A program made the translations under genes and the position numbers. A stretch of DNA of 64,000 bases, taken from Candidatus Moanibacter sp. Lineage in GTDB: Bacteria > Verrucomicrobiota > Verrucomicrobiia > Opitutales > UBA2987. The stretch spans positions 970,104-1,034,103 of the forward strand of contig CBDDCD010000001.1 in the NCBI GenBank assembly GCA_965226025.1. The letters run 5' to 3'. The notes below the pieces were generated by a model that worked only from the letters and a program-made list of their open reading frames with translations, searched no databases and was not told where the DNA came from. Of the stretch, positions 1 through 61,850 are shown one piece after another (the stretch's first letter is position 1; each line of letters begins with the position of its first letter).

Positions 1-1373
1 CCGAAAAGAAAAACTATCACCCCTCCCCTCTCCGCAACTTCCACCATCCCAGCATCCCGACGAACGCCACCACCACCAACAGCATCTCCCCCGGTTCCGG
101 GACCTCCCCATTTAAAATCGAATTCGGGAAGGTAGATCACGGTCTGCCCGTCATCCGAAAGCAACCACACCGAACCCGCCTCGATGCCGGAGACCGACAG
201 TCCAACCGGCAGGGTTGAAAGGATATTAATCGGATCAAACTTTCCGAGAAGCGGACCGAGGGCGCCGATTTGCAGGTTCTCTCCTCCATTGACCCCGAGC
301 AGGGGAGTCAGGTCGAGGTCCGCGGGTATATCGATGATGGGTAGGTCTAGCTGCGTTGAAAGCCGGATCCCGGCGATACCCAGGAGGTCGGGCGCAATCG
401 CCGAAGTGTCGACGACAAAACTCGGAAGCAGCGGCACCGCGCCTCCCTGCGCCCCGGTGTTCCTCACACCAGGAAAAAAGACGCTCACTTGCCCGTCCAC
501 CAGGGCGGCGATTTCGTACCAATCGTCGACCTGCGGGAAAAAGTCCTGATCGGCCGGAAACCAATCGTCGACATCGGGAAACCAGTCGTCAGTCGGCCCC
601 ACCCACTCGGCCAGCCCGTCCGCCCAATCCGCGGGTTGCGGGTACCAATCGTCGACCATGGGAACCCAATCGTTCGCAATTGGATGCAGGGCCAGGTCCT
701 TGACCGGACCGTCCCCGACATTGATCAGCGGGTCTCCCAGCGAGACCAAGGCTCCGTTCTCGAAGGTATCCGGGTTGACCTGCCAATCGTCGATATCGGG
801 AACTCCCACGATCCCTACGTTCCCCATATCCGTCCCGATTGCAATGAAGGGATCCTGGTACTCGAAGGTACCGTCGTCCACGTCCCGGATTCCCTCGACA
901 AAACTGGTGGCTGCTCCGACCCGGTCCATATCCCACGCAGGGGCGTGTGTGATGACTTCGCTGGGCAGCATAGCCGTTCCGTTCGTCCCCCAGATACCCC
1001 GCATCTCGACGATGTGTCCCGAATCGAGCAACACGAGTAGACTGTCCTGCTTCGTCACCGCCGAGACCATGACATCGACCGCCTGCCCGTTCACCCCCCA
1101 GATCCCGGTCCCGTCAATTGTGACCTCGATTCCGAAAGTTTCACCGGCGAGATGAATGCGGTCTTTTCCAACAGTGTCCGTATCGAACACATGTCTCGCC
1201 ACGATGCTCTGGTTGCCTTCCCCGTCACTCGTGAGAAACGCCACCTGGCGGGCTATTGGAGTCGACAGATTACCCGGCGCCACATCCTCAATCGTGATCA
1301 CCCCCAACACACTCGCCGGGATACCCAAAATCAAACACCCCAGCCCCAGGATCGATAGTTTCGTACTTCTCAT
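1..1373 (-). CDS. Secreted hypothetical protein with acidic Trp-rich heptad repeats (partial, runs off the left edge)
   Basis: Hand translation from ATG 1373 gives an uninterrupted frame to the window edge (over 450 aa). N-terminus MRSTKLSILGLGCLILGIPASVLG looks like a signal peptide. Absent from the ORF track, presumably because there is no stop in the window. Confidence 0.8.
   Translation of the reverse strand, partial: MRSTKLSILGLGCLILGIPASVLGVITIEDVAPGNLSTPIARQVAFLTSDGEGNQSIVARHVFDTDTVGKDRIHLAGETFGIEVTIDGTGIWGVNGQAVDVMVSAVTKQDSLLVLLDSGHIVEMRGIWGTNGTAMLPSEVITHAPAWDMDRVGAATSFVEGIRDVDDGTFEYQDPFIAIGTDMGNVGIVGVPDIDDWQVNPDTFENGALVSLGDPLINVGDGPVKDLALHPIANDWVPMVDDWYPQPADWADGLAEWVGPTDDWFPDVDDWFPADQDFFPQVDDWYEIAALVDGQVSVFFPGVRNTGAQGGAVPLLPSFVVDTSAIAPDLLGIAGIRLSTQLDLPIIDIPADLDLTPLLGVNGGENLQIGALGPLLGKFDPINILSTLPVGLSVSGIEAGSVWLLSDDGQTVIYLPEFDFKWGGPGTGGDAVGGGGVRRDAGMVEVAERGGVIVFLF
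516..683 (-). repeat. Eight tandem 21-nt (7-aa) coding repeats, consensus P-x-V-D-D-W-[FY]
   Basis: PIANDWV/PMVDDWY/PQPADWA/DGLAEWV/GPTDDWF/PDVDDWF/PADQDFF/PQVDDWY. Confidence 0.85.
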
Positions 1374-1635
1374 AAAGTCCTCCAGCCCCGACAGAATTAA
1401 CCCCGCAAAATCAATAATCTCGGAGACTCGCTGGATAGGGTCAAGGAAGAATCCCGTTTGCAATCGATCTCACCGGAATAAAACCCGAGTTTACATACGG
1501 GTTCTCTGCGAATCCCTCACTATTTCATCAAACCCGCGTAGCGCTTTCGAGTGGGCTGGCTTGACGGCGCTTTCATTCGGATTTCCGTCTCACTCCGCCG
1601 TGCCGTATCAAAGCGCTGTCAAGCCAGAGCACTCG

Positions 1636-1667
1636 AAAAAACTAGAAATCCGCCCCAGCGGATTTCT
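1636..1667 (-). terminator. Rho-independent terminator after tRNA-Arg
   Basis: 10-bp stem AGAAATCCGC/GCGGATTTCT with 4-nt loop, followed on the minus strand by a T6 tract. Confidence 0.85.
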
Positions 1668-1741
1668 CACGGGAGCTGGGATTCGAACCCAGGACCTACG
1701 GTTTAGAAGACCGTTGCTCTGTCCAGCTGAGCTACTCCCGC
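1668..1741 (-). tRNA. tRNA-Arg (anticodon TCT), CCA not encoded
   Basis: Minus strand GCGGGAG acceptor pairing with CTCCCGT, D arm TAGCTCAGCTGGACAGAGC, anticodon loop CTTCTAA, T arm GGTTCGAATCC. Confidence 0.97.
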
Positions 1742-2355
1742 CGAATTAGGGATCGTGCAATCTAATCCTTCGATGGGGGATGGGAAGTCAATTCTGTCAC
1801 TGTGGCAGTCGCTCGTAGCGGGGTGGGAATTACGAATGAGACGCGGTCCCTCCATCTTGGGTGCACTTCTTTGTCGCGAGCCTTGGCGCGAGCTTTGTCG
1901 ACCCGCCACTATGAACGTCAGTCAAGGGTAGTTGAAAGTCTCCCGTCTATCGAAAGACTCAAAAATCGGAAGATTTGGGGGTACGATCTGAGATGATTCA
2001 TGACTCCTACTCTGGTTAGATATCGACAAAGCAATGTCCGGGCCGCGGGTGGCCTTTTTAACAGGACGAAACTATTGTGTTTCAGGTGGCTTCGTGGAGT
2101 GCTTCGAGCTTCGATTACGCTTAAGATTGCGAATTTCGATTGCCCTTTGCTGATCTCCTTCTCCCCTCAATCGACCAGCCCAATCGCAAGCGTAATCGAC
2201 CTCCGATCTTTCGAGTGCACGATTGGGTGGACAACGTGAGGAAATACTGCAAGGGCGGCCGCTGTCGTGCACTCAATCGTGCACTGTGATCGCAGGGATA
2301 GAACCTGGAAGTTTCAGGAGAGTTTAAAGTATCGCCACACTGGTCGTGCCGGAGC

Positions 2356-3099
2356 CTACGCCACCCCCTCCCCAACCCCCATCTCCGTCTTCTTCGGCAG
2401 CACGATCGTCAGCACGAACTCTTCCAACACCCAGCTCTGGAACTTGTACTGCCCGAAATTCCGAAACTTGCCACCGCAGAACGAGCCTTCCTGGACCGGT
2501 TCGCTGATGGCATAGACCTCGAAAGGCGTCATCATCCCACAACGGACAACCTTTGAAAGCGCTTCCTTGGCGGTCCAGATAACTGTAGCCCGGTGCGTAT
2601 CAGTGAGCTCCCACTTATCCGCGAGCGCCAACTCATCGTCGAGGATCTGGCTCTTCATGACATCGACTTTGGAATCTCGAGCCATTTCCATATCAACGGC
2701 CATGGGGTGTTCCTCGGGAAACGAAAGAGCACATGCGTATGAATCCGAATGACTGATGCTCACCCCTGCGTGCTCGTGCGAGACATAGCGCACCACCGGT
2801 TGGGTGAAGACTCCCGTGGCGATTTCGATCTCCGCCAGGACTGGTTCGTTAAGCTGTTTTGACAACGCCCTCTTGCCCGCGTAGCGGCCGAGCAGATAGC
2901 TGCATCGCCGCTTGTCATACTTGAGAGTTTGAAAATAGCTCAGCTCCTCCCGGTGGAGAATACGGTCGCAATCTTTGTCCAGGTCCGAAAACTGCGACTC
3001 ATGGGCACAGGCTAGGAATCCTCGACGAACTCGATCTTCCCGGCGAAGAGTCAGCGGCCAGCAGCGGCTGGTGAGAAAATCTTCGGAGGAGAATTCCAT
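2356..3099 (-). CDS. 4'-phosphopantetheinyl transferase (Sfp-like)
   Basis: Motifs SYLLGRYAGK, VSISHS, AVDME, WTAKEALSK. Confidence 0.9.
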   Translation of the reverse strand: MEFSSEDFLTSRCWPLTLRREDRVRRGFLACAHESQFSDLDKDCDRILHREELSYFQTLKYDKRRCSYLLGRYAGKRALSKQLNEPVLAEIEIATGVFTQPVVRYVSHEHAGVSISHSDSYACALSFPEEHPMAVDMEMARDSKVDVMKSQILDDELALADKWELTDTHRATVIWTAKEALSKVVRCGMMTPFEVYAISEPVQEGSFCGGKFRNFGQYKFQSWVLEEFVLTIVLPKKTEMGVGEGVA

Positions 3100-3162
3100 G
3101 CAATCGAAATCCTTACGGATTCCGCTACGACAATCAATGACAGGTTAAGGATACAGGAAGAC

Positions 3163-3381: not shown

Positions 3382-4362
3382 GTGACCCAACTCAGACTCG
3401 GAATCGTCGGATCCGGAGGAATGGCCCGCCGGCGGGCTCGGAACTTCAGTGAATTGCCCGACACCAAGGTTACCTCGATCGCGGCGAGAAACCCGGAGAC
3501 CGGAAAGGCCCTGGCCGACGAGATCGGTTGTGATCTCTGTTCTGACTGGCGGGGTCTCATAGACAGCACGGAATTCGATGCGGTAGTCGTCTGCACCCAC
3601 AATGCCCTCCATGGCGAAATCGTTACGACCGCGCTGGAAAACGGCATCCATGTATTTACGGAGTACCCGATTGCCCGGCATCGATTCGAAATCGGGCAGA
3701 TTCAGGAGTTAACGAAAGGTCCATGCGCTGTCCTAAGGGTCGCTCACTCCGAGAATGTGTCGCTCGAGCACCGAAAGCTTCGAACGGAAATAGAAAACAT
3801 GGGAGAACTGATCGCTTCGGTATTTCTGCGGTTGACTCCCGGACGCGGCGCGCGACCTGAAGTGCTGTTCAATCTCAATCAATCCGGACCCCCGGCCCTT
3901 TTCTTCGTCTATCAAGTCTATCCCCTGATCGACTTATTCGGACCCGCCGTCTGGGTAGAGTCCCATGCGAGCTACACAGACCTTCGGGAGGACGGAGGCT
4001 ACGACAGTTTCCTCAACACCCTGACGGTCGGATTCGAAAAGGCCGGAATCGCTCAATGGACCTGGGCCGGAGGAATCGCGATCGGCGCTGCCGAACAATT
4101 CGAGCGCATTGTCCTCTCCGGAGGAACATTGGCTTACGAAAACGGGGATTGGACAGTTTCAAGTAAGGATTCAGAGAAGAAGCTGGATCCGCCCGAGGGA
4201 GACAGTGAAAGCCTTGAAGAACAGTTTTTGCGTGAGGTCTCGGGTAAAGAAGAGTCGTGGAGGCGGGAAACTGAAACGGCGCTCCATGCTGCCGAGATCG
4301 GCATCGCAGCCGAGGAAGCGGCGGCTGGGGAGCGGAGGATAAATCTGCCACTGAGTGACTGA
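3382..4362 (+). CDS. Gfo/Idh/MocA family oxidoreductase
   Basis: N-terminal Rossmann GIVGSGGMA, DAVVVCT..H, HVFTEYP motif. Confidence 0.9.
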   Translation: MTQLRLGIVGSGGMARRRARNFSELPDTKVTSIAARNPETGKALADEIGCDLCSDWRGLIDSTEFDAVVVCTHNALHGEIVTTALENGIHVFTEYPIARHRFEIGQIQELTKGPCAVLRVAHSENVSLEHRKLRTEIENMGELIASVFLRLTPGRGARPEVLFNLNQSGPPALFFVYQVYPLIDLFGPAVWVESHASYTDLREDGGYDSFLNTLTVGFEKAGIAQWTWAGGIAIGAAEQFERIVLSGGTLAYENGDWTVSSKDSEKKLDPPEGDSESLEEQFLREVSGKEESWRRETETALHAAEIGIAAEEAAAGERRINLPLSD

Positions 4363-4439: not shown

Positions 4440-5357
4440 ATGAAAGACACAGAGACGCTTGCGGTTGCGGAGGCCGAGTCCTTGCTGAGCGAGGACGAAG
4501 TCGAGTTCTACCATGAGAACGGCTATCTTGCCGTTTCCCAGGTTTTGAGCCAGGAGGAAGTCGAGGAACTTCGGACGACCATCGATGAATTTGTCGAGAA
4601 GTCTCGCGAGATAACCGAAAACGATGCCGTCTTTGATCTCGAACCATCGCATTCCTTCCAAAATCCTCGTTTGCGACGTCTCAAGAGTCCGTCTCAACAG
4701 CATCCCGTCTTTGAAAAGATAAGGAGGCATGATCGCATTCTCGACATTGTCTCCCAGCTCATCGGTCCCGATATCTACACGAACGGCGATAAGATGAACA
4801 TGAAGCTACCCGATGTCGGCAGCCCGGTTGAGTGGCACCAGGATTGGGCATTCTATCCTCACACCAACGACGACATTCTCGCCGTCGGCATCACCCTCGA
4901 TGAATCGACCCGAAAGAACGGCTGTCTCATGGTCATTCCGGGCTCCCACAAGGGTCCCATTCTCGATCACCATCAAGACGGACACTTTGTCGGCGCCGTC
5001 ACGGAACACGACTTTGACCTGGGCAACGCCGTTCCAATCGAACTCGATCCTGGCGATATTTCCATTCATCACGTCCGTGCTCTGCACGGTTCCATGCCAA
5101 ACACTTCGGGTGTGGCTCGACGCCTTCTTCTGATTCAATACGGTGCCCTCGATGCCTGGCCGCTCCAGTCTCCGCCGAACTGGCGGACTGATCCGGATGC
5201 CTACAATGCCGGCGTTCTACGGGGGCAACCCAATTTCCAACCGAGATTGACGGATGTTCCCGTCCGGCTACCTCTTCCTCCCTCCAAGCGCGGAGGTTCG
5301 ATTTACGAGACTCAGCTCGAATTAAGGGCATCAACCTTCGGAAACGCGCGGCCTTAG
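4440..5357 (+). CDS. Phytanoyl-CoA dioxygenase (PhyH) family Fe(II)/2OG dioxygenase
   Basis: FYHENGYL start, WHQD, CLMVIPGSHK, LHGS..N..R motifs. Confidence 0.93.
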   Translation: MKDTETLAVAEAESLLSEDEVEFYHENGYLAVSQVLSQEEVEELRTTIDEFVEKSREITENDAVFDLEPSHSFQNPRLRRLKSPSQQHPVFEKIRRHDRILDIVSQLIGPDIYTNGDKMNMKLPDVGSPVEWHQDWAFYPHTNDDILAVGITLDESTRKNGCLMVIPGSHKGPILDHHQDGHFVGAVTEHDFDLGNAVPIELDPGDISIHHVRALHGSMPNTSGVARRLLLIQYGALDAWPLQSPPNWRTDPDAYNAGVLRGQPNFQPRLTDVPVRLPLPPSKRGGSIYETQLELRASTFGNARP

Positions 5358-5470: not shown

Positions 5471-5534
5471 CGAAATGCTCACGCATTCCGCTACGAGCAC
5501 CGATAGGGATGTAGCGGAATGCGTGAGCATTTCG
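5471..5534. repeat. Perfect 24-bp inverted repeat (REP-like); a 20-nt copy of one arm recurs at 27032-27051
   Basis: CGAAATGCTCACGCATTCCGCTAC - 16 nt - GTAGCGGAATGCGTGAGCATTTCG. Confidence 0.85.
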
Positions 5535-5609
5535 ACGAACTTGCCGTTGCTTTCTTAATCCGTTGTGCATGAGAAAGAGGATGACGAAGAGGAAGATTTT
5601 TGCGTTTCC

Positions 5610-6881
5610 ATGTACCTGACCTACCTTCGTTTCCTCATCCCTCTGGCTGTTACCGTTATCGCCTTCGATTTGGGCGGACCGCTGGTCAACAGCGGTATGG
5701 CTCGTCTCCCGGAATCGAAGGAAACTTTGGCTGCGTTCGGTTTGGCATGGACCCTGATGCTTTTCCTATTCAATCCGCTCCAACAGGTGAGTCAGCTGGG
5801 GCTCGTCCTGGCCGGTAGCGCGAAGGCAAAACGGAAGATCCAGAAATTTGTCCTCTTGGTCTGTCTTTCCCTCTCTGTCGCCTTGACTCTGTTTGTCTTC
5901 ACCCCGATTGGGATGTGGTTTCTGGAAGACCTCCATCGTGTTGATAGGGATCTCGGGCAGTCGGCTCGATCCGCCGTCATGGCTTTGATTCCCCTGCCGA
6001 TTATCATCGGTATGACGAGCTACCACTCCGGTCTCCTCATGCGCGCTCACAGCACAGCCCCGATCTGCTACGCCACCTTCGCCAATATTGGGGTAAGTCT
6101 TCTCTCCGTCTTCCTTCTCCTTCGATTCGAATCCATCCAGAGTCATCCCATTCGGCTGCCCATTTATGTCATTTACATGGGTTCGATGGCCGAACTTACG
6201 ATTATACTCTTCGGTTATCGGAGATTCGCCCGGCCGATTCTGGCCGAAGCCCGCGCTCCCTTCGTCTCTCACTACCGCTCAATGCGATTCTTTTTTCCCC
6301 TCGCCACTGTCATGGCGTTGCAGGGGATCAGCCGTCCAATAATAAACCTATTTGTCTCTCGCGGACCCGATGGTGTTACCGCTCTTGCGGTTGTCGCGGT
6401 AGCCTATTCTCTCGGCAGTGTCCCCTACGGCTGGCTCAATAACCTGAAGTCGCTTGTTCCCGCGTTCGCCGGATGGGAAGACAGCCGGCGCTCAATCCTA
6501 AGATTCTGCCTCGTCTGCGGAGTTGGTTCGTTTTTTCTTGCCTCCCTTCTTTTTCTCACTCCATTGAGGGACTACCTTCTACTTCGGATCATCGCTCTGG
6601 ACCCGGAAATTGCTTCCCTCTGCGCCCTCCCTCTCATTCTCTCTGCATTTCTTCCTCCTACCGTCCTATTTCGCGCCTACTATCATGGAATCGCGATGGC
6701 CGAGCAACGTACACAGCTCCTTGCTCCCAGCGGACCGACTCGCATTGCAGCCACCATCCTGATTTTGGTCGCGCTTCCCCAGACCGGACTCCACGGAGCC
6801 GCGATCGGCATCGCCGCCCTTCTGGGCGGATTCATTTTTGAGACCATCGTAGTCGTTTGGATGGTAGCAAGGAACACATGA
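5610..6881 (+). CDS. ANKH-like (MATE-fold) polytopic membrane transporter
   Basis: About 12 hydrophobic segments. [41 protein letters not shown] and PYGWL match segments of vertebrate ANKH as I recall them. Start moved to MYLTYLRF because the upstream HEKEDDEEED is a dispersed repeat. Confidence 0.75.
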   Translation: [423 protein letters not shown]

Positions 6882-6912: not shown

Positions 6913-8043
6913 ATGAAGAGTAGATCGAGAATCGGGGTTGTTGGGACCGGATTTATCTCGCGAGGGTTTGTAAATGCGTTCCGAGACGAGTCGGACGTAG
7001 AGATCACAAAAGTTTTGACACGTAGGAAGATTGCGGAATGCGGTGAGTTCCCCGAATCCGGTATTTTGACAGATTCGATTAGCGAGCTGGTTGCCAATGC
7101 CGACCTGGTTGTCGAGTGCAGTGGCGATGTGGTTCACGCCACCGAAGTGATAGACCTTGCGCTAAGAGAGCAACTTCCGGTGGTGACTATGAACTCCGAG
7201 TTTCAGGTAACCTGCGGGTCCTATTTCGCCGAGCGGGGACTCATTACCGAAGCGGAGGGCGACCAACCCGGTTGTCTCGCAGCTCTCGACGAAAATATCT
7301 CTCAGATGGGTTTCAAACCTTGTGTCTTCGGCAATATCAAGGGCTTCCTCAATCATTATCCGTCAATTCAGGAGATGCATTTCTGGTCGCAGAAGCAGGG
7401 GATCAGCATGCCTCAAGTGGTTTCATTTACGGACGGGACTAAGATCCAAATTGAGCAAGCCTTGGTGGCAAACGGATTGGGCGCGACATTGGCGAAGCCG
7501 GGAATGCTTGGAATCGAATCCGAGGATGTTAACACGGGCGCCCTGGTGCTGGCCCAGGCAGCCTCGCGTGTGGGACAACCGATCAGTGACTACATCCTCT
7601 CTCCGAAGTCGCCCCATGGTGTCTTCATAGTGGCCGAGCATGATGGGGAACAGCGTAGCGCTCTGCAGTATTTTAAGCTCGGGGCCGGACCCTACTACGT
7701 GTTGATCCAGAACTTCATCCTCTGCCATCTCGAAACCTTAAAGACCGTTCGGCGTGTTCTTAAGGGAGAAGCAGCCCTGCTCAATAATTCTTCATCTCCA
7801 ACCATCGGAGTCTATGCCGTCGCGAAAAAGACTCTGGCCAAGGGAGAGAGGATTGGGAAGGCCATCGGAAGTTTCGAAGTACGTGGAATCGCAGAACCGA
7901 TCGCGGAGAACGAAGAGTCCATACCCATTGGGCTCCTGGAGAACGCCATTGTCCTGGAACCGATTGAACAGGGCCAAAAAATCCGTTTCACAGATGTTGG
8001 AATTCCCGACAGCCTGGCCAAACGGATCGCATCGGAACAGTGA
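6913..8043 (+). CDS. NAD(P)-dependent oxidoreductase with C-terminal SAF domain (COG4091-like)
   Basis: GVVGTGFI, EGDQPG, SFTDGTKIQIEQALVANGLG, C-terminal AVAKKTLAKGERI..IPIGLLE SAF-like region. Confidence 0.8.
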   Translation: MKSRSRIGVVGTGFISRGFVNAFRDESDVEITKVLTRRKIAECGEFPESGILTDSISELVANADLVVECSGDVVHATEVIDLALREQLPVVTMNSEFQVTCGSYFAERGLITEAEGDQPGCLAALDENISQMGFKPCVFGNIKGFLNHYPSIQEMHFWSQKQGISMPQVVSFTDGTKIQIEQALVANGLGATLAKPGMLGIESEDVNTGALVLAQAASRVGQPISDYILSPKSPHGVFIVAEHDGEQRSALQYFKLGAGPYYVLIQNFILCHLETLKTVRRVLKGEAALLNNSSSPTIGVYAVAKKTLAKGERIGKAIGSFEVRGIAEPIAENEESIPIGLLENAIVLEPIEQGQKIRFTDVGIPDSLAKRIASEQ

Positions 8044-8921
8044 AAGGAATCATTCTCGCGGGAGGAAGGGGCACTCGACTCTACCCTCTTACCCAAGTCG
8101 TCAGCAAGCAACTGTTGCCGGTCTACGACAAGCCCGTGATCTACTACCCACTGACAACGCTGATGCTGACCGAAATCCGGGAATTTCTGATAATAAGCAC
8201 GCCCGAGGATCTCCCCGCGATTCGATCCCTGTTGGGTGATGGCAGCCCACTCGGAATCCAAATCACCTACGCTGAGCAACCCGTACCGGGTGGAATTGCT
8301 CAATCACTGTTGATCGGCGCCTCTTTTACCCGGAACGAAAGTGTAGCCCTGATCCTGGGTGATAATCTCTTCTTTGGGGATTCTCTTGTAGAACAGTTAA
8401 AGCGGGCGATGCAATTGGAGAGCGGCGCCGTGATCTTCACTCGGAAAGTAGCCGACCCCAAGGCCTACGGCCTCGCCGAATTAAGCTCCGGCGGAAAGGT
8501 GCTCTCCCTGATAGAAAAGCCTCAGAACCCGATTTCCGATCTCGCCGTTACCGGCCTTTACCTATTCGACGCGAGGGCCTGTTCGCTGGCGTCCCAACTC
8601 CTTCCCTCGTTGCGCGGCGAACTGGAAATCCTCGACCTTCTGGAAATCTACCGGCAGGAGGATTCCCTGACCGCCGAGATTCTTGGGAAGGATACGTCCT
8701 GGTTTGATGTCGGGACGGTCCAGAACCTCCACGAAGCAAGCCGCTATGTGGCAGAAAAACAGAATGCGAGCGGGCAGCTCCTTGGGAGCATAGAAGGGAC
8801 TGCTTGTCGATTGGGTCTGATCAGCGAATCTCAGCTCCAGCAGCTTGCCTTGCCCCTGGCGCAATCGCAATATGGGCAATTACTTCTAGAGACGATTGAA
8901 GATAAGGCAACCCTCCCCTGA
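8040..8921 (+). CDS. rfbA: Glucose-1-phosphate thymidylyltransferase
   Basis: KGIILAGGRGTRLYPLT..SKQLLPVYDKP, LILGDNLF, RGELEI, WFDVGT. Confidence 0.95.
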   Translation: MKGIILAGGRGTRLYPLTQVVSKQLLPVYDKPVIYYPLTTLMLTEIREFLIISTPEDLPAIRSLLGDGSPLGIQITYAEQPVPGGIAQSLLIGASFTRNESVALILGDNLFFGDSLVEQLKRAMQLESGAVIFTRKVADPKAYGLAELSSGGKVLSLIEKPQNPISDLAVTGLYLFDARACSLASQLLPSLRGELEILDLLEIYRQEDSLTAEILGKDTSWFDVGTVQNLHEASRYVAEKQNASGQLLGSIEGTACRLGLISESQLQQLALPLAQSQYGQLLLETIEDKATLP

Positions 8922-9233: not shown

Positions 9234-9818
9234 ATGGGTTTCAAATTCACACGCCTGAACATCCCGGAAGTGGTACTTATCGATGCCCAGCCGATCGAGG
9301 ACCATCGGGGATTCCTCGTGGAAACCTTTAAGGCCTCGGACTTCGAACGCTGCGGAATTTCGACGGATTTCGTTCAGGAGAACCACTCCGTCTCCCGGTT
9401 GTCGGTTATCAGAGGTCTACACTATCAGCTCTGCCCCATGCAGCAGGGGAAGCTAGTCCGCGTGATTCGGGGCGAACTCTTCGATGTTGCGGTTGATATC
9501 CGAATCAACTCACCAACCTACGGACAGTGGACGGGTGTTCCTCTTTCATCGAAAAGACATCAAGCTATTTGGGTGCCCCCCGGCTTCGCCCATGGGACCT
9601 GCAGCCTCACCGATCGTACAGAGGTTGTTTACATGCTGACCCGGGAATACAACCCGCAGTCGGAACGCGGATTTGCCTGGAACGATCCCAACCTCGACAT
9701 CCACTGGCCCGTGAAAGATCCAATCCTTTCTGAGAAGGACCGATTTCTTCCGCAATTCGGGGAGGTCGAGAACAATCTCTACTGGCACGGGAGCGAGGTC
9801 GCTACTTTCATCGGCTAG
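9234..9818 (+). CDS. rfbC: dTDP-4-dehydrorhamnose 3,5-epimerase
   Basis: DHRGFL.E, FVQENHSVS...IRGLHYQ, QGKLVRV..G..FDVAVDIR, PPGFAHG. Confidence 0.96.
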   Translation: MGFKFTRLNIPEVVLIDAQPIEDHRGFLVETFKASDFERCGISTDFVQENHSVSRLSVIRGLHYQLCPMQQGKLVRVIRGELFDVAVDIRINSPTYGQWTGVPLSSKRHQAIWVPPGFAHGTCSLTDRTEVVYMLTREYNPQSERGFAWNDPNLDIHWPVKDPILSEKDRFLPQFGEVENNLYWHGSEVATFIG

Positions 9819-9918: not shown

Positions 9919-10914
9919 ATGAAGGTACTTATCAGCGGAGCGGCCGGCTACATTGGATCGGTATTGGTGCCGCACTTGCTCTGCCAAGGCCACCGGGTCG
10001 TGGCAGTTGACCGCTTTCTCTTTGGCCGGGACACCCTGCCCCCGGCGTCGGACGATTTGACCATTCTAGAGAGAGACATTCGGTCGATAGATTCAGATCT
10101 CTTTACGTCTCAGAGTCTGATCGACGCCGTTATTGATCTGGCGGCCTTGTCCAACGATCCGGCAGGGGAAATCGATCCGGAGGTGACCCATTCGATCAAC
10201 CACCGAGCGCGGGTTCGAGTTGCTTCGATTGCCAAGTGTTCTGGGACTCCCAGATACATTCTGCCATCCTCCTGCAGCGTATACGGGTTTCAGAAAGGCA
10301 CGGTCGACGAGACTTCTGAACTCCGCCCCCTCACGACCTACGCAAAAGCGAATCGACAAGCAGAGAAGGATGTCCTCGCCCTCGCTAATCAGGAATTCTG
10401 TCCCACCATCCTTCGATTAGCGACCGTCTATGGCCTCTCACCGAGGATGCGTTTCGATCTCGCAGTCAACGGAATGGTGCGAGGCTTTTTTGTCGACGGA
10501 AGAATCCCAATATTACGGGAGGGAAGACAGTGGCGACCGTTTGTCCACGTCCTTGATGTCGCTCGTGCCTTTGAAATCATGTTATCAGCGGATAGGAATA
10601 CGATCGCCACAGAGATTTTCAATGTCGGATCGAACGACCAGAACCATCAAATTTTTGAACTCGCCGAACGGGTCTCCTCGGCAATTGGGCTACCCTTTGA
10701 ATTCGAATAGTACGGATCGCCGGATAATCGCTCTTACAAAGTATGCTTTGACAAAATCGCTCGCCAGACCGCTTTCACAACTCAACGGCGGGTAGAAGAT
10801 GGCGCCCGCGAAATATGGAGCGCCCTGAACGATAGCAAGCTGGATCCAGACCTCGCAGAAGCGATCACGGTCGACTGGTACCGGAAATTACTTGCCGATG
10901 GGGTTGAGCTCTAG
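9919..10914 (+). pseudogene. NAD-dependent nucleotide-sugar epimerase/dehydratase with an internal amber stop at 10708-10710
   Basis: GAAGYIG and YAKAN SDR motifs. After FEFE-TAG the same frame continues YGSPDNRSYKVCFDKI... for 68 codons to TAG at 10912-10914. Confidence 0.8.
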
Positions 10915-11009: not shown

Positions 11010-12826
11010 GAGGCTGTCCCAAATCCGAGAGGATTTGGGTGGAAGCCTGATACCGATATCAATCTTCGTCACGTTATGTAGACCACGACATGCCTTCCGT
11101 CCTCGGTAGCTTACCTTTTATCCGTTATGCACCTTTCCAGCACCCTTCCTCTCGCTTTGAGTCGATAGTTCTCCCAAGGAAGCGCCTCTGACTCGATTCT
11201 TGGATCCCTATGCCGCCTGCGTTGCCTCTTTCTCATGTTCTTGCGCAAGTCTCTGCGCGATTTTCCATAGATTGTGGGACAGAACCGACCAGGCCACGCT
11301 AAGGTTACGGTTGTCAAAGCCTTTGCTGCGTATCTTGCCCCCGTGCCATCGGTTCTTGAGCACTCCGATCCGGCCTTCGGTGCTCCCTCGTCGTCGCTGC
11401 AACCGGACAAAGCGCGGCTCCTCCATCCGCTCCTTGAGCTCTTGTGGATTGCGGGGCGTAAGGGCGTCAAAAATCCCCTCTGCCTGGAGCCGCTTGCTGG
11501 CCGCCTTCGAGGCATAGCCCCGATCCCCACTGATCGCTTCGATCTTCTCCTCTAAAGCGAAGCCCTTTTGCCTCTCCAGACTTTCCCAAAGCTGCTTCAA
11601 TTCGCTCGGGGCCTGCCCCCCATACAGTTTCCAGTCCAACAGATATCCCTCTGCGCTCTCGCATAAATAAAGGGTGTTGCCAAACTCCACCTCCCGATCT
11701 GCCTTGCCTCGCACGATGACGTCAATCTCAGGTTCGTAGGCGCTCAGGATCTTCTCCTCATTCTTCACCTGCCGCCCCCCTATGATCCGTTCGTGCGCCT
11801 GTTTCATGACCTGCGGTATCTGCTCTAACATACCATCCATTCGCTCGATGATTCGGCTCGCCTTCTTCTCGGTGTAATCGCTTTGCATCCACATAGCTTC
11901 CAATAAGTCACGGTGGCGAAGGGCATGGCCCTCAATCTTCTTGAGCAATAGCTTCATCCGCCGCAGGATCCCTTTACGCGCTTTGCCCGCCTCCCGGCGC
12001 CGACGCGCATGCGTCATCTCCAGGCACCGTTTGTTCATCTCCCGAGCCAATCCCTTTGCTCCCTGGGGCATGCGCTGTTTCATTCCCGCCTGCCCGATCA
12101 GACTGATCGCCTTGAGCAGCGTTGCTCCCACATCCTTGAGCAAGACCCAGTCCACGGGCCAGTGGATGTTCGCTTCCAGGCAAGTGGCGTCGATCAGGCA
12201 TTCCCTCGTATCGATCGGCTTCTCTAATCCTGCCTCACCACAATGTTCAGCATTGCCCACCACCTCGGTCATCCTTGCATGCAGCTGTCTCAGATACGCT
12301 TCGTCGAAGAATTTCGAATCCCGTTCCAGACTGCTCTTCGATATTTTCCGGATCCCGTCTACCTCACGCACCCGGCAAAAATTAGCCAGAAGCTCACTGC
12401 GTCCCAACTCCTGCGACAGACAACGAAAGGATATCCCTCCGAGTAAATGACGCACCACCTCCACCCGCAGCGCTTTTATCGCTCTTAGAGCGCGTCGCTC
12501 CCGATCCTTCCCTCCCGCTTCATCCCATCCTTCCAAGGCTTTTACGATCGCCTCCCTTTCCAGCGAGGAGTCGATCAAAACCCGGTCAATCCGCTCCATT
12601 GTTTCCAGAAACACGGTGTAGTCTTTGCATCGAATGACTGGAGTTAGGGCTGGACGCAGGAAGCTTTGTACGGCAATATTTTTCATGAGAAGGGCGTGCT
12701 TTGTATTTGACTAACGCAAGCATAAGCGCCCTTTTTCGCCGGATCGAGCTTTTTGCAGCTCTATCCGGCCTTTTTTTTGCCCATAACTCATTAAAAATCA
12801 ATTGTTTCCACCACTGGGACGGGCTC
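11010..12826 (-). mobile_element. IS5-family insertion sequence, copy 1 (1817 bp)
   Basis: Terminal IRs GAGGCTGTCCCA / GAGCCCGTCCCA (10 of 12); near-identical to 30565-32380 and 59917-61722. Confidence 0.93.
11208..12686 (-). CDS. IS5-family DDE transposase (492 aa)
   Basis: IDATCLEANIHWPVD, KILSAYEP...RGKA..EVEFG, SGDRGY, RRGSTEGRIG. Confidence 0.92.
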   Translation of the reverse strand: MKNIAVQSFLRPALTPVIRCKDYTVFLETMERIDRVLIDSSLEREAIVKALEGWDEAGGKDRERRALRAIKALRVEVVRHLLGGISFRCLSQELGRSELLANFCRVREVDGIRKISKSSLERDSKFFDEAYLRQLHARMTEVVGNAEHCGEAGLEKPIDTRECLIDATCLEANIHWPVDWVLLKDVGATLLKAISLIGQAGMKQRMPQGAKGLAREMNKRCLEMTHARRRREAGKARKGILRRMKLLLKKIEGHALRHRDLLEAMWMQSDYTEKKASRIIERMDGMLEQIPQVMKQAHERIIGGRQVKNEEKILSAYEPEIDVIVRGKADREVEFGNTLYLCESAEGYLLDWKLYGGQAPSELKQLWESLERQKGFALEEKIEAISGDRGYASKAASKRLQAEGIFDALTPRNPQELKERMEEPRFVRLQRRRGSTEGRIGVLKNRWHGGKIRSKGFDNRNLSVAWSVLSHNLWKIAQRLAQEHEKEATQAA

Positions 12827-15410: not shown

Positions 15411-16003
15411 TCAAGATTCTTTGTGATTTTGTCTGTGTTCATCCTCATCGACTCGGAGTTGCACCAGACCACGGAGCATGAGCGATTTGGTATAGCCGAT
15501 GATGGCGAGTTCACACTCCTTGCGATTAAGACGAAACTGTTTTCGGAGCTTGCTCCCGATTGATCCGAGGTCTCTCTCACCGTCAATTTGCTGCCAAAAG
15601 AAACTCCCCATTTCGTCGAGATTCAGTCTCACATTTCGACGGTATCCGAATTTATCGTCAAGGAAACGCATCAGAGGAGAATTGGGTTCAACGCGCAATC
15701 TTAGTTGCAGCATCGATCGGTTGTCTCTCTTTGCCTCAACACCGGGAGTGATCGAAGGTACGGCGGCGAATGGATCTCTCGTTTGCCTCAACACCGGGAG
15801 TGATCGAAGGTACGGCGGCGAATGGATCTCTCGGTTTGTCTCTCTTTGCCTCAACACCGGATCGAAGGTACGGCGGCGAATGGATCTCTCGGTTTGTCTC
15901 TCTTTGCCTCAACACCGGGAGTGATCGAAGGTACGGCGGCGAATGGATCTCTCGGTTTGATTCCTGTTCGCCCATTGCGGGGGGTCCCAGTGCTGTTACT
16001 CAT
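15411..16003 (-). pseudogene. PqqD-like (RiPP recognition element fold) protein disrupted by an out-of-frame tandem amplification
   Basis: C-terminus LDEMGSFFWQQIDGERDLGSI...AIIGYTKSLMLRGLV resembles PqqD. ATG 16003 overlaps the upstream TAA. Removing the 173 extra repeat bases leaves a 420-bp ORF (139 aa). Confidence 0.65.
15719..15959. repeat. Four tandem copies of a 63-bp unit, two with deletions (11 and 5 bp)
   Basis: Unit TTTGTCTCTCTTTGCCTCAACACCGGGAGTGATCGAAGGTACGGCGGCGAATGGATCTCTCGG, encoding PRDPFAAVPSITPGVEAKRDK on the minus strand. Confidence 0.92.
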
Positions 16004-16934
16004 TGAGCCTGATTATCATCGAACTGAAGCGATCGTTCCAGTCACCCCCGCCTCTCAACGGGACGTATTTGAGATTCTCTACGTCCGTTGTGAAGCTGAT
16101 CGATCGGCCTCGGAATCCGTTGTGTTCGAAGAGTTCGATTGTATAATTCCCTTCGATTCCAATTGACGAAACGGCATCATTCAGATCGGGAATTTCCGAC
16201 ATATTGTGCAATCGATACTCTCCCCGAAAGTGCCACCTGCGCCCTCGAAATTCAGTATGCTGAAAGAGGCAGACTCCGGTTCTCTCATCTTCGCTGGCTT
16301 CTTCTATCTGTTTGGATACATCTCCACGATGCGGGCGGGTCGGAAGGACCTTCAAAGAGGAAGCTTCATTTTTCCAGTTGCGATAGGATGAACTCCGATC
16401 CCGGTAATCCTGAGCCACACTTCCGATTCGAATACCACCACTCTGGCCCCCGCTCGCGCTGGCCCCTCGGTACGGCCCGTGATTCTGAGCGCTATCAGAT
16501 TGTGCGGGCCCGGATTGTGCCTCGGCTCCTTCGTCGGACTGAGGCGCAAATACTACACCGAGAAAGGCCGCGAATGGATCGACCTCCTCTGTTTCCCGAT
16601 ACCTCGTCGGGATTCCCATTTCGATATGGGACAGGTCAAAGACATTGTTAATAATCCGAACCGATCGTCCCCGATAGTTTTCGTGCTCGTACAGAATAAT
16701 CTCGGCGTCGCCCTCGATAAGAACGGATGCGATCCGGTCCTGGAAGCTCGCCAATCGATCATGAAAGCGAATACGTGCAAGATCACGCAAGTGAACTTCC
16801 GGCTCAATCTCGAGGTAATTTCCTCGAAAACCGGGTTCCGAGAAGAGAACGACGCGGCCCGGCGGTCTTTGCTCGGCCCAGGAGCTAGTTATCGCCACGA
16901 TAAAGAGAGACATTGAAACAAAGTGTGTTTTCAT
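15996..16934 (-). CDS. Secreted beta/gamma-crystallin domain protein
   Basis: Signal peptide MKTHFVSMSLFIVAITSSWA. Greek-key motifs LFSEPGFRG, LYEHENYRG, LFQHTEFRG, LFEHNGFRG paired with D..AS/SS motifs, with a low-complexity G/S/Q linker between domains. Confidence 0.88.
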   Translation of the reverse strand: MKTHFVSMSLFIVAITSSWAEQRPPGRVVLFSEPGFRGNYLEIEPEVHLRDLARIRFHDRLASFQDRIASVLIEGDAEIILYEHENYRGRSVRIINNVFDLSHIEMGIPTRYRETEEVDPFAAFLGVVFAPQSDEGAEAQSGPAQSDSAQNHGPYRGASASGGQSGGIRIGSVAQDYRDRSSSYRNWKNEASSLKVLPTRPHRGDVSKQIEEASEDERTGVCLFQHTEFRGRRWHFRGEYRLHNMSEIPDLNDAVSSIGIEGNYTIELFEHNGFRGRSISFTTDVENLKYVPLRGGGDWNDRFSSMIIRLNE

Positions 16935-16981
16935 CGTTTTTGATTTGGACGCAGATCGACAATAGTTATTCAATCTGATTC

Positions 16982-18762: not shown

Positions 18763-20751
18763 CTATCTTTGTATAGCCATCAGTCGATGGAATATCTTCT
18801 CTATCGTGGGCGTAAGGCGCGTGCGATTGTAGGCATCCCCGCACTGTCGAATCGCTTCAGCCGCGGTGGGATAGGGGTGGATCACATTAGCCAGTTTCCC
18901 CAGCCCAGTACCACTCTGAATGGCCACGGTGATCTCGCTTATCATGTCGCCCGCGTGGGTGCCCACTACCGTCGCCCCGAATATCTCATCGGTCCCTTTC
19001 TTGACATGGATCTTGACAAAGCCCTCGGTCTCGCCGTCGACGATGGACCGGTCGACGTCTGAAAAGTTGCGCTGAAAAGTGGCAAATTCAATTTCGCGCT
19101 CCCGAAGATCCTTTTCGTAGAGACCGACGTGGGCGACTTCCGGATCGGTAAAGGTGGTCCAGGGAACGAGGAAATTTGAAAATCGATCGCGTCCAAAGAA
19201 GAGAGCGTTTCGGATGACGAGACGTGCCATAAAATCGGCCATATGGGTGAATTGATATCGGCTTGCCACATCTCCAACTGCATAAACGTTGGAGTTCGAA
19301 GTCTGCATCCGGTCATTAACTTTCACTCCCATCCGCTCATCGTAATCGACTCCCGCTGCTTCGAGACCGATCCCGTTTACATTCGGTTTCCTTCCTGCCG
19401 CTACCAGCAAGGCATCGAATTCGAGATCGTGTTCGCCTTTATCATTCTCGAATACCACTGTGATCGGTGGCTTCCTACCTTCACATCGGACGGCATTTAT
19501 TCGAGCCTTGAACTCGAAAACGACTCCGTCCCGCGTCAATGAATCCGCCACAATACCCGCCGCCTCGGGGTCTTCCTTTGGCAAAATGTTCATGTCGCGG
19601 GCGAAGACGGTTACCTTGGATCCGAACCTCCGAAAGGCTTGGGCCATCTCAAGTCCGATAGGACCGGCCCCAATCACCCCCAAACGTGCAGGTAATTCCG
19701 TCAGATTGAATAAGGTAGCGTTGGTCAAGTAGGGCGCCTCCGCCATTCCCTCGATTGCAGGGATCGCGGCCGAACCCCCAGTCGCAATCACGGCCTTGGC
19801 GAATTCGAGCCTCTTTCCATTTACCTCTACCGTGTTCCTACCAGTGAATCGCCCTTTGCCCACGAACAGGTCGGTCCCTAAGTCCCGGGAGAAGCGAGTA
19901 GCGGAATCGTGTGGAGCGATACCTGCCCTGAGCTTTCGCATGCGCTCCATAACAGCCCCGAAGTCCACCGAGACCTCGCCGTCAATCTTGATCCCAAGTT
20001 CGTGTGAATGGAGAAATGAGGCGGCCGTCTTGGCACACTTCAGCAGCGCTTTTGATGGAACGCAGCCAACATTGAGGCAATCACCACCCATCAGGTGCGA
20101 TTCGATCAGCGCTACTTTTGCACCTAACCCCGCGGCCCCGGCGGCTGAAACCAACCCTCCCGTCCCGGCACCGATAACGACGAGATTGTATCGCGACTTT
20201 GGCTCTGGATCCACCCACTCCCTCGGATGAACGCTATCGAGAAGTCTGGAATTGTGCTCATCCAACGGCTCCACGCCGATCGAATCGAGCTCATCCTGCC
20301 CAAACGACGCCAGTTCCGGGTCGCGATCGGGAATCTCAGGTTGAAGTGACAGTGCCTCCTTTCCGAGAGAGATTGGAGAGGAGAGGAAATCCGCCCAACT
20401 CACAGCGCTTCCGTCGGGTCTTTCGCCAACTCGGCCGTGATCCTCATCCTCGGCGAACCGGTAGAATAGATTCTCGTTCTTAAAGGCGTGCTCTTGAAGG
20501 ACGTGATGAAAAAATCCAGCGTTCAGCATCATGTTGCCGATATGGATCGCGTCTTCTTCGCCAATCGCGACTCCCTCTTCAATCAGCTTCCCCACCGCCT
20601 CCTTACCGACGAAGCACTTCTCGTAAGTCCTGGAGGGAAAACCGTACTTCCTATCGCGAATATCGAAAGAGGCCCGCATTCGAGCGGCAAGTTCCTCGAT
20701 GTCCTCCTCGTCAAATGTTGCTTCGTTTTCGATCTTCTCTCGATCCGACAT
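18763..20751 (-). CDS. N-terminal DEP domain fused to a class-I pyridine nucleotide-disulfide oxidoreductase (MerA/LpdA-like)
   Basis: IRDRKY...TYEKCFVGKEAV...HHV..EHAFKNENLFYRF (DEP-like), then GAGTGG, GGDCLNVGCVPSKAL, AVGD and HPYPT. GGAGG RBS before ATG 20751. Confidence 0.85.
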   Translation of the reverse strand: MSDREKIENEATFDEEDIEELAARMRASFDIRDRKYGFPSRTYEKCFVGKEAVGKLIEEGVAIGEEDAIHIGNMMLNAGFFHHVLQEHAFKNENLFYRFAEDEDHGRVGERPDGSAVSWADFLSSPISLGKEALSLQPEIPDRDPELASFGQDELDSIGVEPLDEHNSRLLDSVHPREWVDPEPKSRYNLVVIGAGTGGLVSAAGAAGLGAKVALIESHLMGGDCLNVGCVPSKALLKCAKTAASFLHSHELGIKIDGEVSVDFGAVMERMRKLRAGIAPHDSATRFSRDLGTDLFVGKGRFTGRNTVEVNGKRLEFAKAVIATGGSAAIPAIEGMAEAPYLTNATLFNLTELPARLGVIGAGPIGLEMAQAFRRFGSKVTVFARDMNILPKEDPEAAGIVADSLTRDGVVFEFKARINAVRCEGRKPPITVVFENDKGEHDLEFDALLVAAGRKPNVNGIGLEAAGVDYDERMGVKVNDRMQTSNSNVYAVGDVASRYQFTHMADFMARLVIRNALFFGRDRFSNFLVPWTTFTDPEVAHVGLYEKDLREREIEFATFQRNFSDVDRSIVDGETEGFVKIHVKKGTDEIFGATVVGTHAGDMISEITVAIQSGTGLGKLANVIHPYPTAAEAIRQCGDAYNRTRLTPTIEKIFHRLMAIQR

Positions 20752-20939
20752 GAATCCTCCTATTACCTTCGGCCTGTGACCCCTCGACGACCAGGACGAC
20801 ACGAAAAGGCCGGTATTTCTTGCTCCCTTCGACTATTTCCCAAGTTTGTTCCCATACTTCGTCGCCGCGATTTCGAGATGCTTACAGATTCGGCGAAGAT
20901 TCCAATCTAAACCTAACTACAACATGCCGCAGGAATCGG

Positions 20940-25613: not shown

Positions 25614-26951
25614 ATGAACGTCACAGCCAAAAAGGAACTGGGGGATTCGCCATCGAATGATCCGGAGCCAACCCAGGCGGGTAGTTATTTCGTCGCGAAT
25701 TATCCCCCATTTTCATTCTGGAACAGGGCCGAGAACGCCAAGGTTGAATCGCTCCTGGAAACTACCGGGAAAGTTGAGAATCCGATGGGGCTCTATATCC
25801 ACATACCCTTCTGCCGAAAACGCTGCCACTTCTGCTATTTCCGCGTTTACACAGATAAGAATTCCTCCGAAATCGCCTCTTATCTCAACGCCGCGGTTGA
25901 AGAGCTCCGGCTCTACACCGAAAAGCCGTTTCTGGCAGAGAGAAGACCGAAATTTGTCTACTTCGGGGGTGGGACTCCTTCCTACCTCTCCGCGCGTCAG
26001 CTTGCGGCCTTCTCCGATCGGATCAAAGAGCACCTACCGTGGGACGAAGCCGAGGAGGTCGCCTTCGAGTGCGAACCGGGAACCCTCAACGATAGTAAGC
26101 TCGCAGCAATTCGCGACATCGGGGTCACCCGCTTGAGTCTCGGAATCGAAAACTTCGATGACGAAATCCTCGATCTCAACGGCAGGGCTCACCGTTCCAA
26201 AGAGGTGTTCCGTTCCTACGAGCAAGCGATGTCGAAGGGATTCCCGCAGATAAATATCGATCTGATCGCCGGCATGATCGGGGAAACGGAATCGAAATGG
26301 CAACTGACTGTCGAAAGGACTCTCGAGCTGGAGCCGGATAGCGTAACTGTCTACCAGATGGAGATCCCCTTCAATACCACCATCAATAAAACCATGCGGA
26401 AGGAGGGCAAAATCGTCGCCCCGGTCGCTGACTGGGCACAGAAACGCCGCTGGGTGGACTTCGCTTTCCAACGGATGGAGGAGAAAGGCTACACTGTTAC
26501 CAGTGGCTACACTGCGGTCCGCGATCCGGATCGAGCGAAATTTATCTATCGGGACAGCCTTTGGAGAGGCGCCGATATGCTGGCCATCGGGGTTGCTTCA
26601 TTCGGCCATTTTTCCGGCCACCACTATCAGAATCTTAAGCACTTCGGCGACTATATCGGAAGGATAGACAAAGGATCTCTCCCGATCGATCGATCCTTGG
26701 AAACGAGTCGGGAAGAGCAGCTCATTCGAGAGCTCATACTGCAAATGAAACTTGGTCTCGTCTCGCGTCCCTATTTCCGGGAGAAATTCGACGTCGATGT
26801 AATTGAGCGTTTTCGCGAGCAATTTTCCGACCTTGAGAAGCGCGAGATGGTGCGGATCGATGAGGATCGAATATCCTTGAATCGCAAAACTCTTCTGCGC
26901 GTTGACTCGCTCCTACCGGGTTTCTTTCTCCCTCAACATCGTGAATCCTAA
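25614..26951 (+). CDS. HemN-like radical SAM protein
   Basis: LYIHIPFCRKRCHFC (CxxxCxxC), YFGGGTP, ECEPG, RLSLG, NIDLIAG. Confidence 0.92.
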   Translation: MNVTAKKELGDSPSNDPEPTQAGSYFVANYPPFSFWNRAENAKVESLLETTGKVENPMGLYIHIPFCRKRCHFCYFRVYTDKNSSEIASYLNAAVEELRLYTEKPFLAERRPKFVYFGGGTPSYLSARQLAAFSDRIKEHLPWDEAEEVAFECEPGTLNDSKLAAIRDIGVTRLSLGIENFDDEILDLNGRAHRSKEVFRSYEQAMSKGFPQINIDLIAGMIGETESKWQLTVERTLELEPDSVTVYQMEIPFNTTINKTMRKEGKIVAPVADWAQKRRWVDFAFQRMEEKGYTVTSGYTAVRDPDRAKFIYRDSLWRGADMLAIGVASFGHFSGHHYQNLKHFGDYIGRIDKGSLPIDRSLETSREEQLIRELILQMKLGLVSRPYFREKFDVDVIERFREQFSDLEKREMVRIDEDRISLNRKTLLRVDSLLPGFFLPQHRES

Positions 26952-27100
26952 AGCAGGTAGCGAGAGATTCTACGGCCCAAACGGGAAACCAGGCTGCATT
27001 CTGTCAGCTCCCACCTGCCGCCTGTTCGTCCAAATGCTCACGCATTCCGCTGCCTGCATCGGCTCGCTGCGGACCTCTGACCTAAATCGCCATTAACTCC

Positions 27101-30561: not shown

Positions 30562-30564
30562 CTA

Positions 30565-59546: not shown

Positions 59547-59916
59547 ATGCCTTCACCGTTGCAGGAGTATTTGTTTGATCTTCAAGGCTTCATTGCTCTG
59601 AAAAGCGCCGTATTCGCACGTGCTATCGTTACCACAACGATCAGTTTCGGTGTGGTCAGGTCAATATCCTGGTCGCTCTTACCGATACCGGGCCCGGCGA
59701 CGGAGCCACTATGGTCATCCCGGGTAGCCATAAATCAAATTTCATCCACCCGAAACTGGAGAGCGGACAGCAACTGTCAGGTTCTGCAGATGGAGTGGAA
59801 GGAGCGACTGAGGTCTACATGCAAGTAGGAGACGCTCTTCTCTTCGTCGACTGTCTTGCTCACGGTTCAGCTAAACGTCTCAACGAAGGGGAGAGGCGAA
59901 TCCTCATTCATAGGTA
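59547..59916 (+). pseudogene. PhyH-family dioxygenase remnant, 5' part (internal deletion, interrupted by IS5 copy 3)
   Basis: EYLFDLQGFIAL..AV joined out of frame to YRYHN..CGQVNILVALTD.GPGDGATMVIPGSHKSNF...HGS. Confidence 0.8.
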
Positions 59917-61722: not shown

Positions 61723-61850
61723 TAGGTATGGACCACAGTGGGGTAACCCCTTCTCCGGCTACCAGCCCATCCGAGGAACTCCTCGCTCGCCTGAGCGAAA
61801 GCCGTAAGCAGATTGTTCAACCCATCCCCCCGATTAGTTCCCCGAGTTGA
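61723..61850 (+). pseudogene. PhyH-family dioxygenase remnant, 3' part
   Basis: Removing the IS and one TSD copy gives HRYGPQWGN..GYQP, followed by a one-base frameshift to SEELLARL..RKQIVQP. Confidence 0.7.

Follow-up and report, generated by a model that had tools for sequence, protein, structure and literature searches.

ANKH, the progressive ankylosis protein (SLC62A1), governs citrate and pyrophosphate outside the cell. Its mutations underlie craniometaphyseal dysplasia and chondrocalcinosis as well as an ankylosis syndrome. P5 and E490 are sites of chondrocalcinosis mutations, and W292R is a further mutation of human ANKH. The protein belongs to the PF07260 family, which we take to be equivalent to SLC62 and to TCDB 2.A.66.9, the Ank family within the MOP superfamily. 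The precomputed PF07260 label is already present on every homologue found in this work, one JGI copy carries the name "progressive an...", and NCBI records of metagenome-assembled genomes (MAGs) call the bacterial members "hypothetical protein". Expression of ANKH leads to the release of citrate, which is the dominant product, and of succinate, malate and nucleoside triphosphates (PMC7371198). The L244S substitution in human ANKH abolishes the release of both citrate and PPi (PMC7371198), and C331R and G389R cause craniometaphyseal dysplasia (PMC13356900). A 2026 review still describes the dysfunction caused by L244S as unresolved, and term searches of the review return no mention of a three-dimensional structure or of bacterial relatives of ANKH. 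A full-text literature search, which has incomplete coverage, likewise found no published ANKH structure, no proposal of a bacterial origin of ANKH and no bacterial member that has been characterised or discussed. The statement in the earlier note on this DNA that no characterised bacterial member is known therefore agrees with the literature, but bacterial members are already labelled as PF07260 in databases. The bacterial PF07260 group is known, database-annotated and uncharacterised, and the protein described here is an additional member of it.

The window analysed here is a stretch of 64,000 nucleotides from Candidatus Moanibacter sp., and the gene of interest lies at 5610..6881 on the + strand, starts with ATG at 5610 and encodes 423 amino acids. 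An alternative GTG start at 5565 would give 438 amino acids; the open frame 5565-6881 (+) is unbroken, and the ORFs in the other frames across this interval are short shadows. L001, a metagenome contig of independent origin with DNA 99.8% identical to that of the window, codes for exactly the same protein (P0001). The earlier note had read this ORF as a bacterial homologue of ANKH and had suggested weighing ANKH models against MATE and Wzx models. The Pfam ANKH model (PF07260) matches the window protein with 165.5 bits (cut-off 22, E 2.6e-48), far above its threshold. In contrast, Pfam MatE (PF01554) reaches 16.4 bits and stays under its cut-off of 24.9, and the sole NCBIfam match, from a collection without an ANKH-specific model, is matE TIGR00797, whose 26.5 bits fall short of the 147.4 required. 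The Wzx, MurJ, Rft1 and Polysacc_synt models give zero matches even at E <= 10. The outcome that the earlier note named as refuting its reading, generic MATE/MurJ/Wzx families scoring better and a specific ANKH match being absent, is the reverse of what is seen. The product of the window ORF is a genuine ANKH-family protein.

Mammalian ANKH P0041, a database protein of 492 residues, was used as the reference for a direct comparison. BLASTP aligns the window protein with P0041 at 33% identity and 53% positives (232 bits, E 1e-75). The alignment is collinear, with residues 2-415 of the window protein corresponding to residues 10-444 of ANKH, and so includes the C-terminal half of the protein beyond the Pfam match. 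All three pairs of peptides that the earlier note had set side by side lie within this alignment, and the similarity extends well beyond them and is far in excess of chance. A second, weak BLASTP segment places the C-terminal half of the protein on the N-terminal half, showing the internal duplication typical of the MOP fold.

The similarity includes residues expected to lie within the membrane. When 26 bacterial sequences are compared with 17 holozoan ones, 39 columns carry the same residue with at least 85% conservation in both groups. The shared polar set, given here in bacterial/ANKH numbering, consists of N27/N35 in TM1, Q238/Q251, R242/R255, N246/N259 and R251/R264 in TM7, Y273/Y290 and W275/W292 in TM8, R355/R384 in TM10, T368/T397, S374/S403 and R378/R407 in TM11, and E411/E440 in TM12. 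The 39 columns also take in loss-of-function sites of human ANKH: L244, W292, C331 and G389 correspond to bacterial L231, W275, C303 and G360, each with a conservation of 92-100% across the bacterial clade.

AlphaFold2, run on a 22-sequence alignment, produces a confident all-helical model (pLDDT 88.4, pTM 0.85), and analysis of helices and hydropathy fits a 6+6 arrangement of about 12 transmembrane segments. Foldseek comparison of the model with the PDB yields 61 matches at E <= 1e-3, and the best-ranked 50 of these 61 are all proteins of the MATE/MurJ/Wzx type (MOP), with TM-scores up to 0.74 at 12-16% identity. Human MATE1, the MATEs of Camelina and Arabidopsis, Aq_128 and PfMATE lead the ranking, MurJ is close behind, and WzxE takes the 37th place. 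The window protein is predicted from this model to be a two-lobed (6+6) membrane protein with a MOP/MATE-type fold. Sequence searches of the PDB, either with the single protein or with a 22-sequence profile, give no match at E <= 10, so that only the fold comparison is informative; no ANKH chain was detected in the PDB copy by sequence, profile or fold search. The window protein is basic, containing 32 lysines and arginines and 18 aspartates and glutamates, and the arginine cluster of helices 7, 10 and 11 may line the transport path.

An exhaustive phmmer search against 1.84 billion cluster representatives finds 1219 relatives at E <= 1e-3, with only 57 clusters at E <= 1e-30. Among the 1219 matches, a representative of fish ANKH stands in 16th place (229 bits, 36% identity), and many of the next matches are ANKH proteins of sponges, choanoflagellates, cnidarians, brachiopods, echinoderms and hemichordates. 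Remoter PF07260 proteins with 25-28% identity come from Planctomycetota, Phycisphaerae and Dehalococcoidales. A pattern-seeded scan of 185,579 species-representative genomes recovers 117 relatives, and the 80 loci inspected among them are all in MAGs, the carriers being Opitutales, Caldilineaceae/Anaerolineae, Latescibacterota, Gemmatimonadota and Handelsmanbacteria. The ANKH-like gene is rare and phylogenetically patchy in bacteria. Among genomes, the best match is L002, a MAG of an uncultured member of Opitutales, in which the protein (P0002) is 71-73% identical and the flanking genes are up to 85-87% identical; an origin of the window in Opitutales (Verrucomicrobiota) is therefore the most likely one.

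Many of the carrier MAGs are named as in sponge or coral symbiont projects (SB0665_bin, IRC1_bin, Plut_, long-read "chromosome: 1"; loci L026-L073 and others), and Latescibacterota, Gemmatimonadota and Caldilineaceae are classic sponge associates. Other carriers come from lake, groundwater and open ocean, and the link with animal habitats is an apparent one, read from MAG names. A Gemmatimonadetes MAG, RS821, has near-identical ANKH-like loci on two contigs (L080 and L081), which represent either a duplication or a bin of two strains.

Neighbour-joining trees, a distance method only, were built from Kimura distances with 100 bootstraps. The window clade, which spans Opitutales, Latescibacterota, Gemmatimonadota and Chloroflexota, and holozoan ANKH form a joint clade with bootstrap values of 99% in a 56-taxon tree and 97% in an 82-taxon tree. 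Holozoan ANKH, minus one unplaced transcriptome sequence, is recovered at 92% (56 taxa) and 91% (82 taxa). The bacterial PF07260 proteins of Planctomycetota and Dehalococcoidales branch outside the group formed by the window clade and holozoan ANKH, and P0243 groups within the eukaryote clade in the 82-taxon tree. Monophyly of the bacterial clade receives 54% in the 56-taxon tree and 9-13% in the 82-taxon tree. The robust result of these distance trees is that the window clade is the prokaryotic group closest to choanoflagellate and animal ANKH; it may be either sister or ancestral to ANKH. It is conceivable, although we consider it doubtful, that the clade is the sister or progenitor of ANKH, that the gene was transferred horizontally into the holozoan stem and that the bacterial members already export citrate-like carboxylates or nucleotides.

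In the window, the ANKH-like gene is preceded on the same strand by a gene for a GFO/IDH/MocA NAD-dependent oxidoreductase (3382..4362, +), which is syntenic with L002, and by a gene for a PhyH-family Fe(II)/2-oxoglutarate dioxygenase (4440..5357, +; Pfam PhyH E 4e-39). PhyH enzymes consume 2-oxoglutarate and release succinate. The PhyH orthologue in L002 is 72% identical and leaves a spacer of only about 52-64 nt to the ANKH-like gene, whereas the corresponding spacer in the window is about 250 nt long. This longer spacer contains a perfect palindrome with 23-bp arms (5472..5533; -51 kcal/mol, z = -8.9), which has no Rfam match and is missing from the short L002 spacer. Related palindrome half-sites are found at 3106-3128 and 27031-27053, both of them intergenic, and the palindrome looks like a member of a REP/MITE-like repeat family. 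Scans for promoters and terminators give matches no more numerous than in shuffled sequence.

Downstream, a DRL-type (DXR-like/homoserine-dehydrogenase-like) oxidoreductase gene (6913..8043, +) begins 31 nt past the ANKH stop codon. It is followed by a gene for an RmlA-like sugar-1-phosphate thymidylyltransferase (8040..8921, +; NTP_transferase E 7e-61), which overlaps the DRL stop by 4 nt and scores 343 bits with TIGR01207, slightly below the cut-off of 360.65. RmlC (dTDP-4-dehydrorhamnose 3,5-epimerase; 9234..9818, +; E 2.4e-65) and an SDR/NAD-dependent epimerase (9919..10914, +) complete the block. The epimerase gene has a premature stop at 10708-10710: relative to L001, a G-to-A change at 10709 reduces the product to 263 amino acids in the window, and the gene is intact in L001 with 331 amino acids. 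Either the gene has become a pseudogene in this strain, or the change is a sequencing error. The gene order in L002 is PPTase (-), GFO, PhyH and ANKH, directly followed by a molybdenum hydroxylase, which in the window lies at 12960. Because the DRL-RmlA-RmlC-SDR block is missing from L002, where the molybdenum hydroxylase adjoins ANKH, the block is an indel, a local insertion. In Opitutales, the ANKH-like gene would form a unit with the GFO-type oxidoreductase and the succinate-releasing PhyH dioxygenase, and in this strain the DRL-RmlA-RmlC-SDR block would have been added right downstream of that unit. With the nucleotide-sugar block only 31 nt away, the substrate in this strain could also be a different one, peculiar to the strain.

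Other parts of the window show the activity of mobile elements. An IS element of about 1.8 kb is present in three copies (11010-12825, ~30563-32380 and ~59915-61730) with 98% mean column identity including the flanks; it encodes a 492-residue DDE_Tnp_1 transposase on the - strand and has terminal inverted repeats TAGAGGCTGTCCCA... The copy at 11010-12825 is a recent insertion, as it is missing from L001 and has an 8-bp target duplication. Truncation of the epimerase gene by this copy is ruled out, because alignment with L001 places the element in an intergenic position and the stop arises from the point change at 10709. An IS110-family transposase, unrelated to the DDE copies, is encoded at 51599-53086 (-), and together with the three IS copies it makes the region rich in mobile elements. 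The Rfam scan of the window returns a tRNA only: a tRNA gene at 1668-1741 (-; 71.5 bits) overlaps an ORF at 1156-1749 (+), which has no Pfam match and is probably spurious. The gene at 18763-20802 (-) encodes an unusual fusion of an N-terminal DEP domain (Dishevelled/Egl-10/Pleckstrin), a domain found mostly in eukaryotes, with a pyridine-nucleotide-disulphide oxidoreductase. The gene at 15996-16973 (-), also present in L001, encodes beta/gamma-crystallin and peptidase-inhibitor I36 repeats. Scattered natural-product-like genes of the window encode an Sfp-type PPTase (2356-3099, -) and, at 25614-29631 (+), a radical-SAM enzyme, an AMP-binding enzyme and a flavoenzyme resembling tryptophan halogenases; the window ORFs scanned include no PKS or NRPS gene.

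The neighbourhood of the ANKH-like gene was compared across loci by calling and clustering ORFs and by scanning 67 upstream and 67 downstream neighbours (134 in total) with Pfam, family tallies being taken from the 25 most frequent families per side. No universally conserved neighbour of the ANKH-like gene was found across the loci. TPP-dependent enzymes are the most frequent neighbours, with 22 occurrences at the 67 loci (5 upstream and 17 downstream), followed by class-V aminotransferases (11), amidohydrolases (10) and ACC-deaminase/CuyA-like PLP enzymes (8). DHDPS and HpcH aldolases account for 5 neighbours at these loci, and GDSL hydrolases and SDRs also occur. The commonest neighbourhood cluster is a TPP enzyme as well, present at 24 of 72 loci. 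However, a TPP enzyme as an orthologous partner gene is ruled out, since two subfamilies are involved, on opposite sides in two phyla: in Latescibacterota, PRK06154 lies downstream of the ANKH-like gene, and in Caldilineaceae, PRK08266 lies upstream of it. The two subfamilies indicate a recurring chemical theme and not an orthologous pair or a conserved operon. Judged by family chemistry, the neighbours are mostly enzymes that make or use 2-oxo acids and other carboxylic acids. This theme is suggestive and not statistical, because many of the loci are related by descent, and the independent associations are few, amounting to about four arrangements.

On the basis of homology, phylogeny, conserved residues, fold and genomic context, we favour, with some reservation, the view that the window protein is a candidate ANKH-type transporter of small organic anions. 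As ANKH is thought to do, the protein would work as a secondary carrier that transports such anions through the cytoplasmic membrane, most probably in the outward direction. Its substrates would most likely be di- or tricarboxylates or 2-oxo acids; nucleotides or a compound bearing pyrophosphate are possible too. The anions would travel along the conserved polar set, which would perhaps also provide the ion-coupling site. This proposal combines the release data for ANKH with the retention of the basic and polar residues and with the carboxylic-acid enzymes encoded nearby. The alternative explanations are, in decreasing order of likelihood, an importer, a MATE-like exporter and a flippase for lipid-linked glycans.

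The same neighbourhoods can be read in the opposite direction of transport. An importer would take up a carboxylate or an amino-acid-derived substrate for degradation by the adjacent enzymes, which look mostly catabolic (amidohydrolase, TPP enzyme, aminotransferase, PLP lyase and oxidoreductases), and 62 of the 67 upstream neighbours share the strand of the ANKH-like gene. To our knowledge, however, all characterised members of the MOP superfamily act outward. Moreover, several of these loci are already equipped for uptake by systems dedicated to it (family-5 solute-binding proteins, ABC ATPases and an SSF symporter), and ANKH itself drives outward release (PMC7371198). Uptake is therefore an unlikely function of the window protein.

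The structural matches raise another explanation, that the protein resembles MATE transporters in function and uses ion coupling to export a cationic drug, or a secondary metabolite made by the nearby PPTase, halogenase-like, AMP-binding and radical-SAM genes. Its top structural matches are MATE transporters, the MatE models give weak sub-threshold matches, and the PPTase gene is syntenic in L002. However, the ANKH model scores 140 bits over its own cut-off when the MatE models stay under theirs, arginines, not acidic residues, make up most of the conserved charges within the membrane, and no PKS or NRPS gene was found adjacent, all of which makes an exporter of this kind improbable.

A Wzx/MurJ-type flippase for a lipid-linked glycan made from the dTDP-sugar of the downstream RmlA, RmlC and SDR enzymes, to which the MOP fold (TM-scores of 0.70-0.74 to MurJ and 0.57 to WzxE) and the gap of just 31 nt to the DRL-RmlA block in this strain might point, is very improbable, because this reading depends only on the strain-specific Rml block, whose SDR/epimerase has a premature stop and which is missing from the nearest relative L002, the Polysacc_synt, MurJ and Rft1 models find no match, nucleotidyltransferases, dTDP-sugar isomerases, glycosyltransferases and polymerases are absent from the 25 most frequent families on each flank of the ANKH-like genes (134 neighbours), and no glycosyltransferase, polymerase or chain-length regulator was found in 34 other window ORFs (mostly the larger ones). 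The adjoining nucleotide-sugar cluster to which the earlier note drew attention is real, as the RmlA-like, RmlC and SDR genes attest, but as a functional argument it is weak, since the block is missing from L002 and no such family is among the 25 most frequent ones on either side at the 67 loci. Of the two functions that the note considered, a nucleotide or polyanion exporter and a MOP-type flippase, the polyanion exporter survives on homology, and the flippase gains no support.

A candidate ANKH-type anion transporter in bacteria is of interest in several respects. A compact, tail-less orthologue that is 33% identical to ANKH and keeps the disease positions is the sort of protein with which structure determination, reconstitution and substrate mapping usually become feasible, so the window protein is a candidate for a tractable model of ANKH. 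The trees raise the idea that ANKH, which is apparently holozoan, derives from a small bacterial lineage. If the horizontal transfer outlined above were true, an animal regulator of mineralisation would have its evolutionary source in the clade, which would also be the first tractable model of its structure and mechanism. For bacterial physiology, the gene represents a type of transporter that NCBI MAG records leave unnamed and that recurs beside enzyme families of 2-oxo-acid and amino-acid metabolism. There is no surprise at the database level; the protein is a moderate lead for the structure, mechanism and evolutionary origin of ANKH.

Among the known systems, the MurJ and Wzx flippases have the MOP fold in common with the window protein, MurJ at the higher TM-scores and WzxE at the lower one. 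However, MurJ has 14 helices, compared with about 12 in the window protein. MATE transporters (NorM, PfMATE, plant DTX and human MATE1) are the best structural matches, with TM-scores of 0.62-0.74 over about 450 aligned columns; they belong to the same MOP superfamily and have the repeat of N-terminal and C-terminal halves in common with the window protein, to which they are 14-16% identical. The cation sites of MATE transporters are typically acidic. In contrast, those charged residues of the window protein that are conserved within the membrane are mostly arginines, and their basic character suggests anionic rather than cationic substrates. ANKH and the window protein have the predicted 6+6 helix layout in common. 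Compared with ANKH, the window protein does not have the first eight or so residues, which include P5, the loop insertion of about 11 residues around 306-320 and the acidic cytoplasmic tail 445-492, which includes E490. The P5 segment and the E490 tail of the vertebrate protein are lineage-specific extras and not core features of the ANKH family. Conversely, the arginines R32, R145 and R148 are conserved in the bacterial group only, and the bacterial relatives, unlike ANKH, sit in operon-like contexts.
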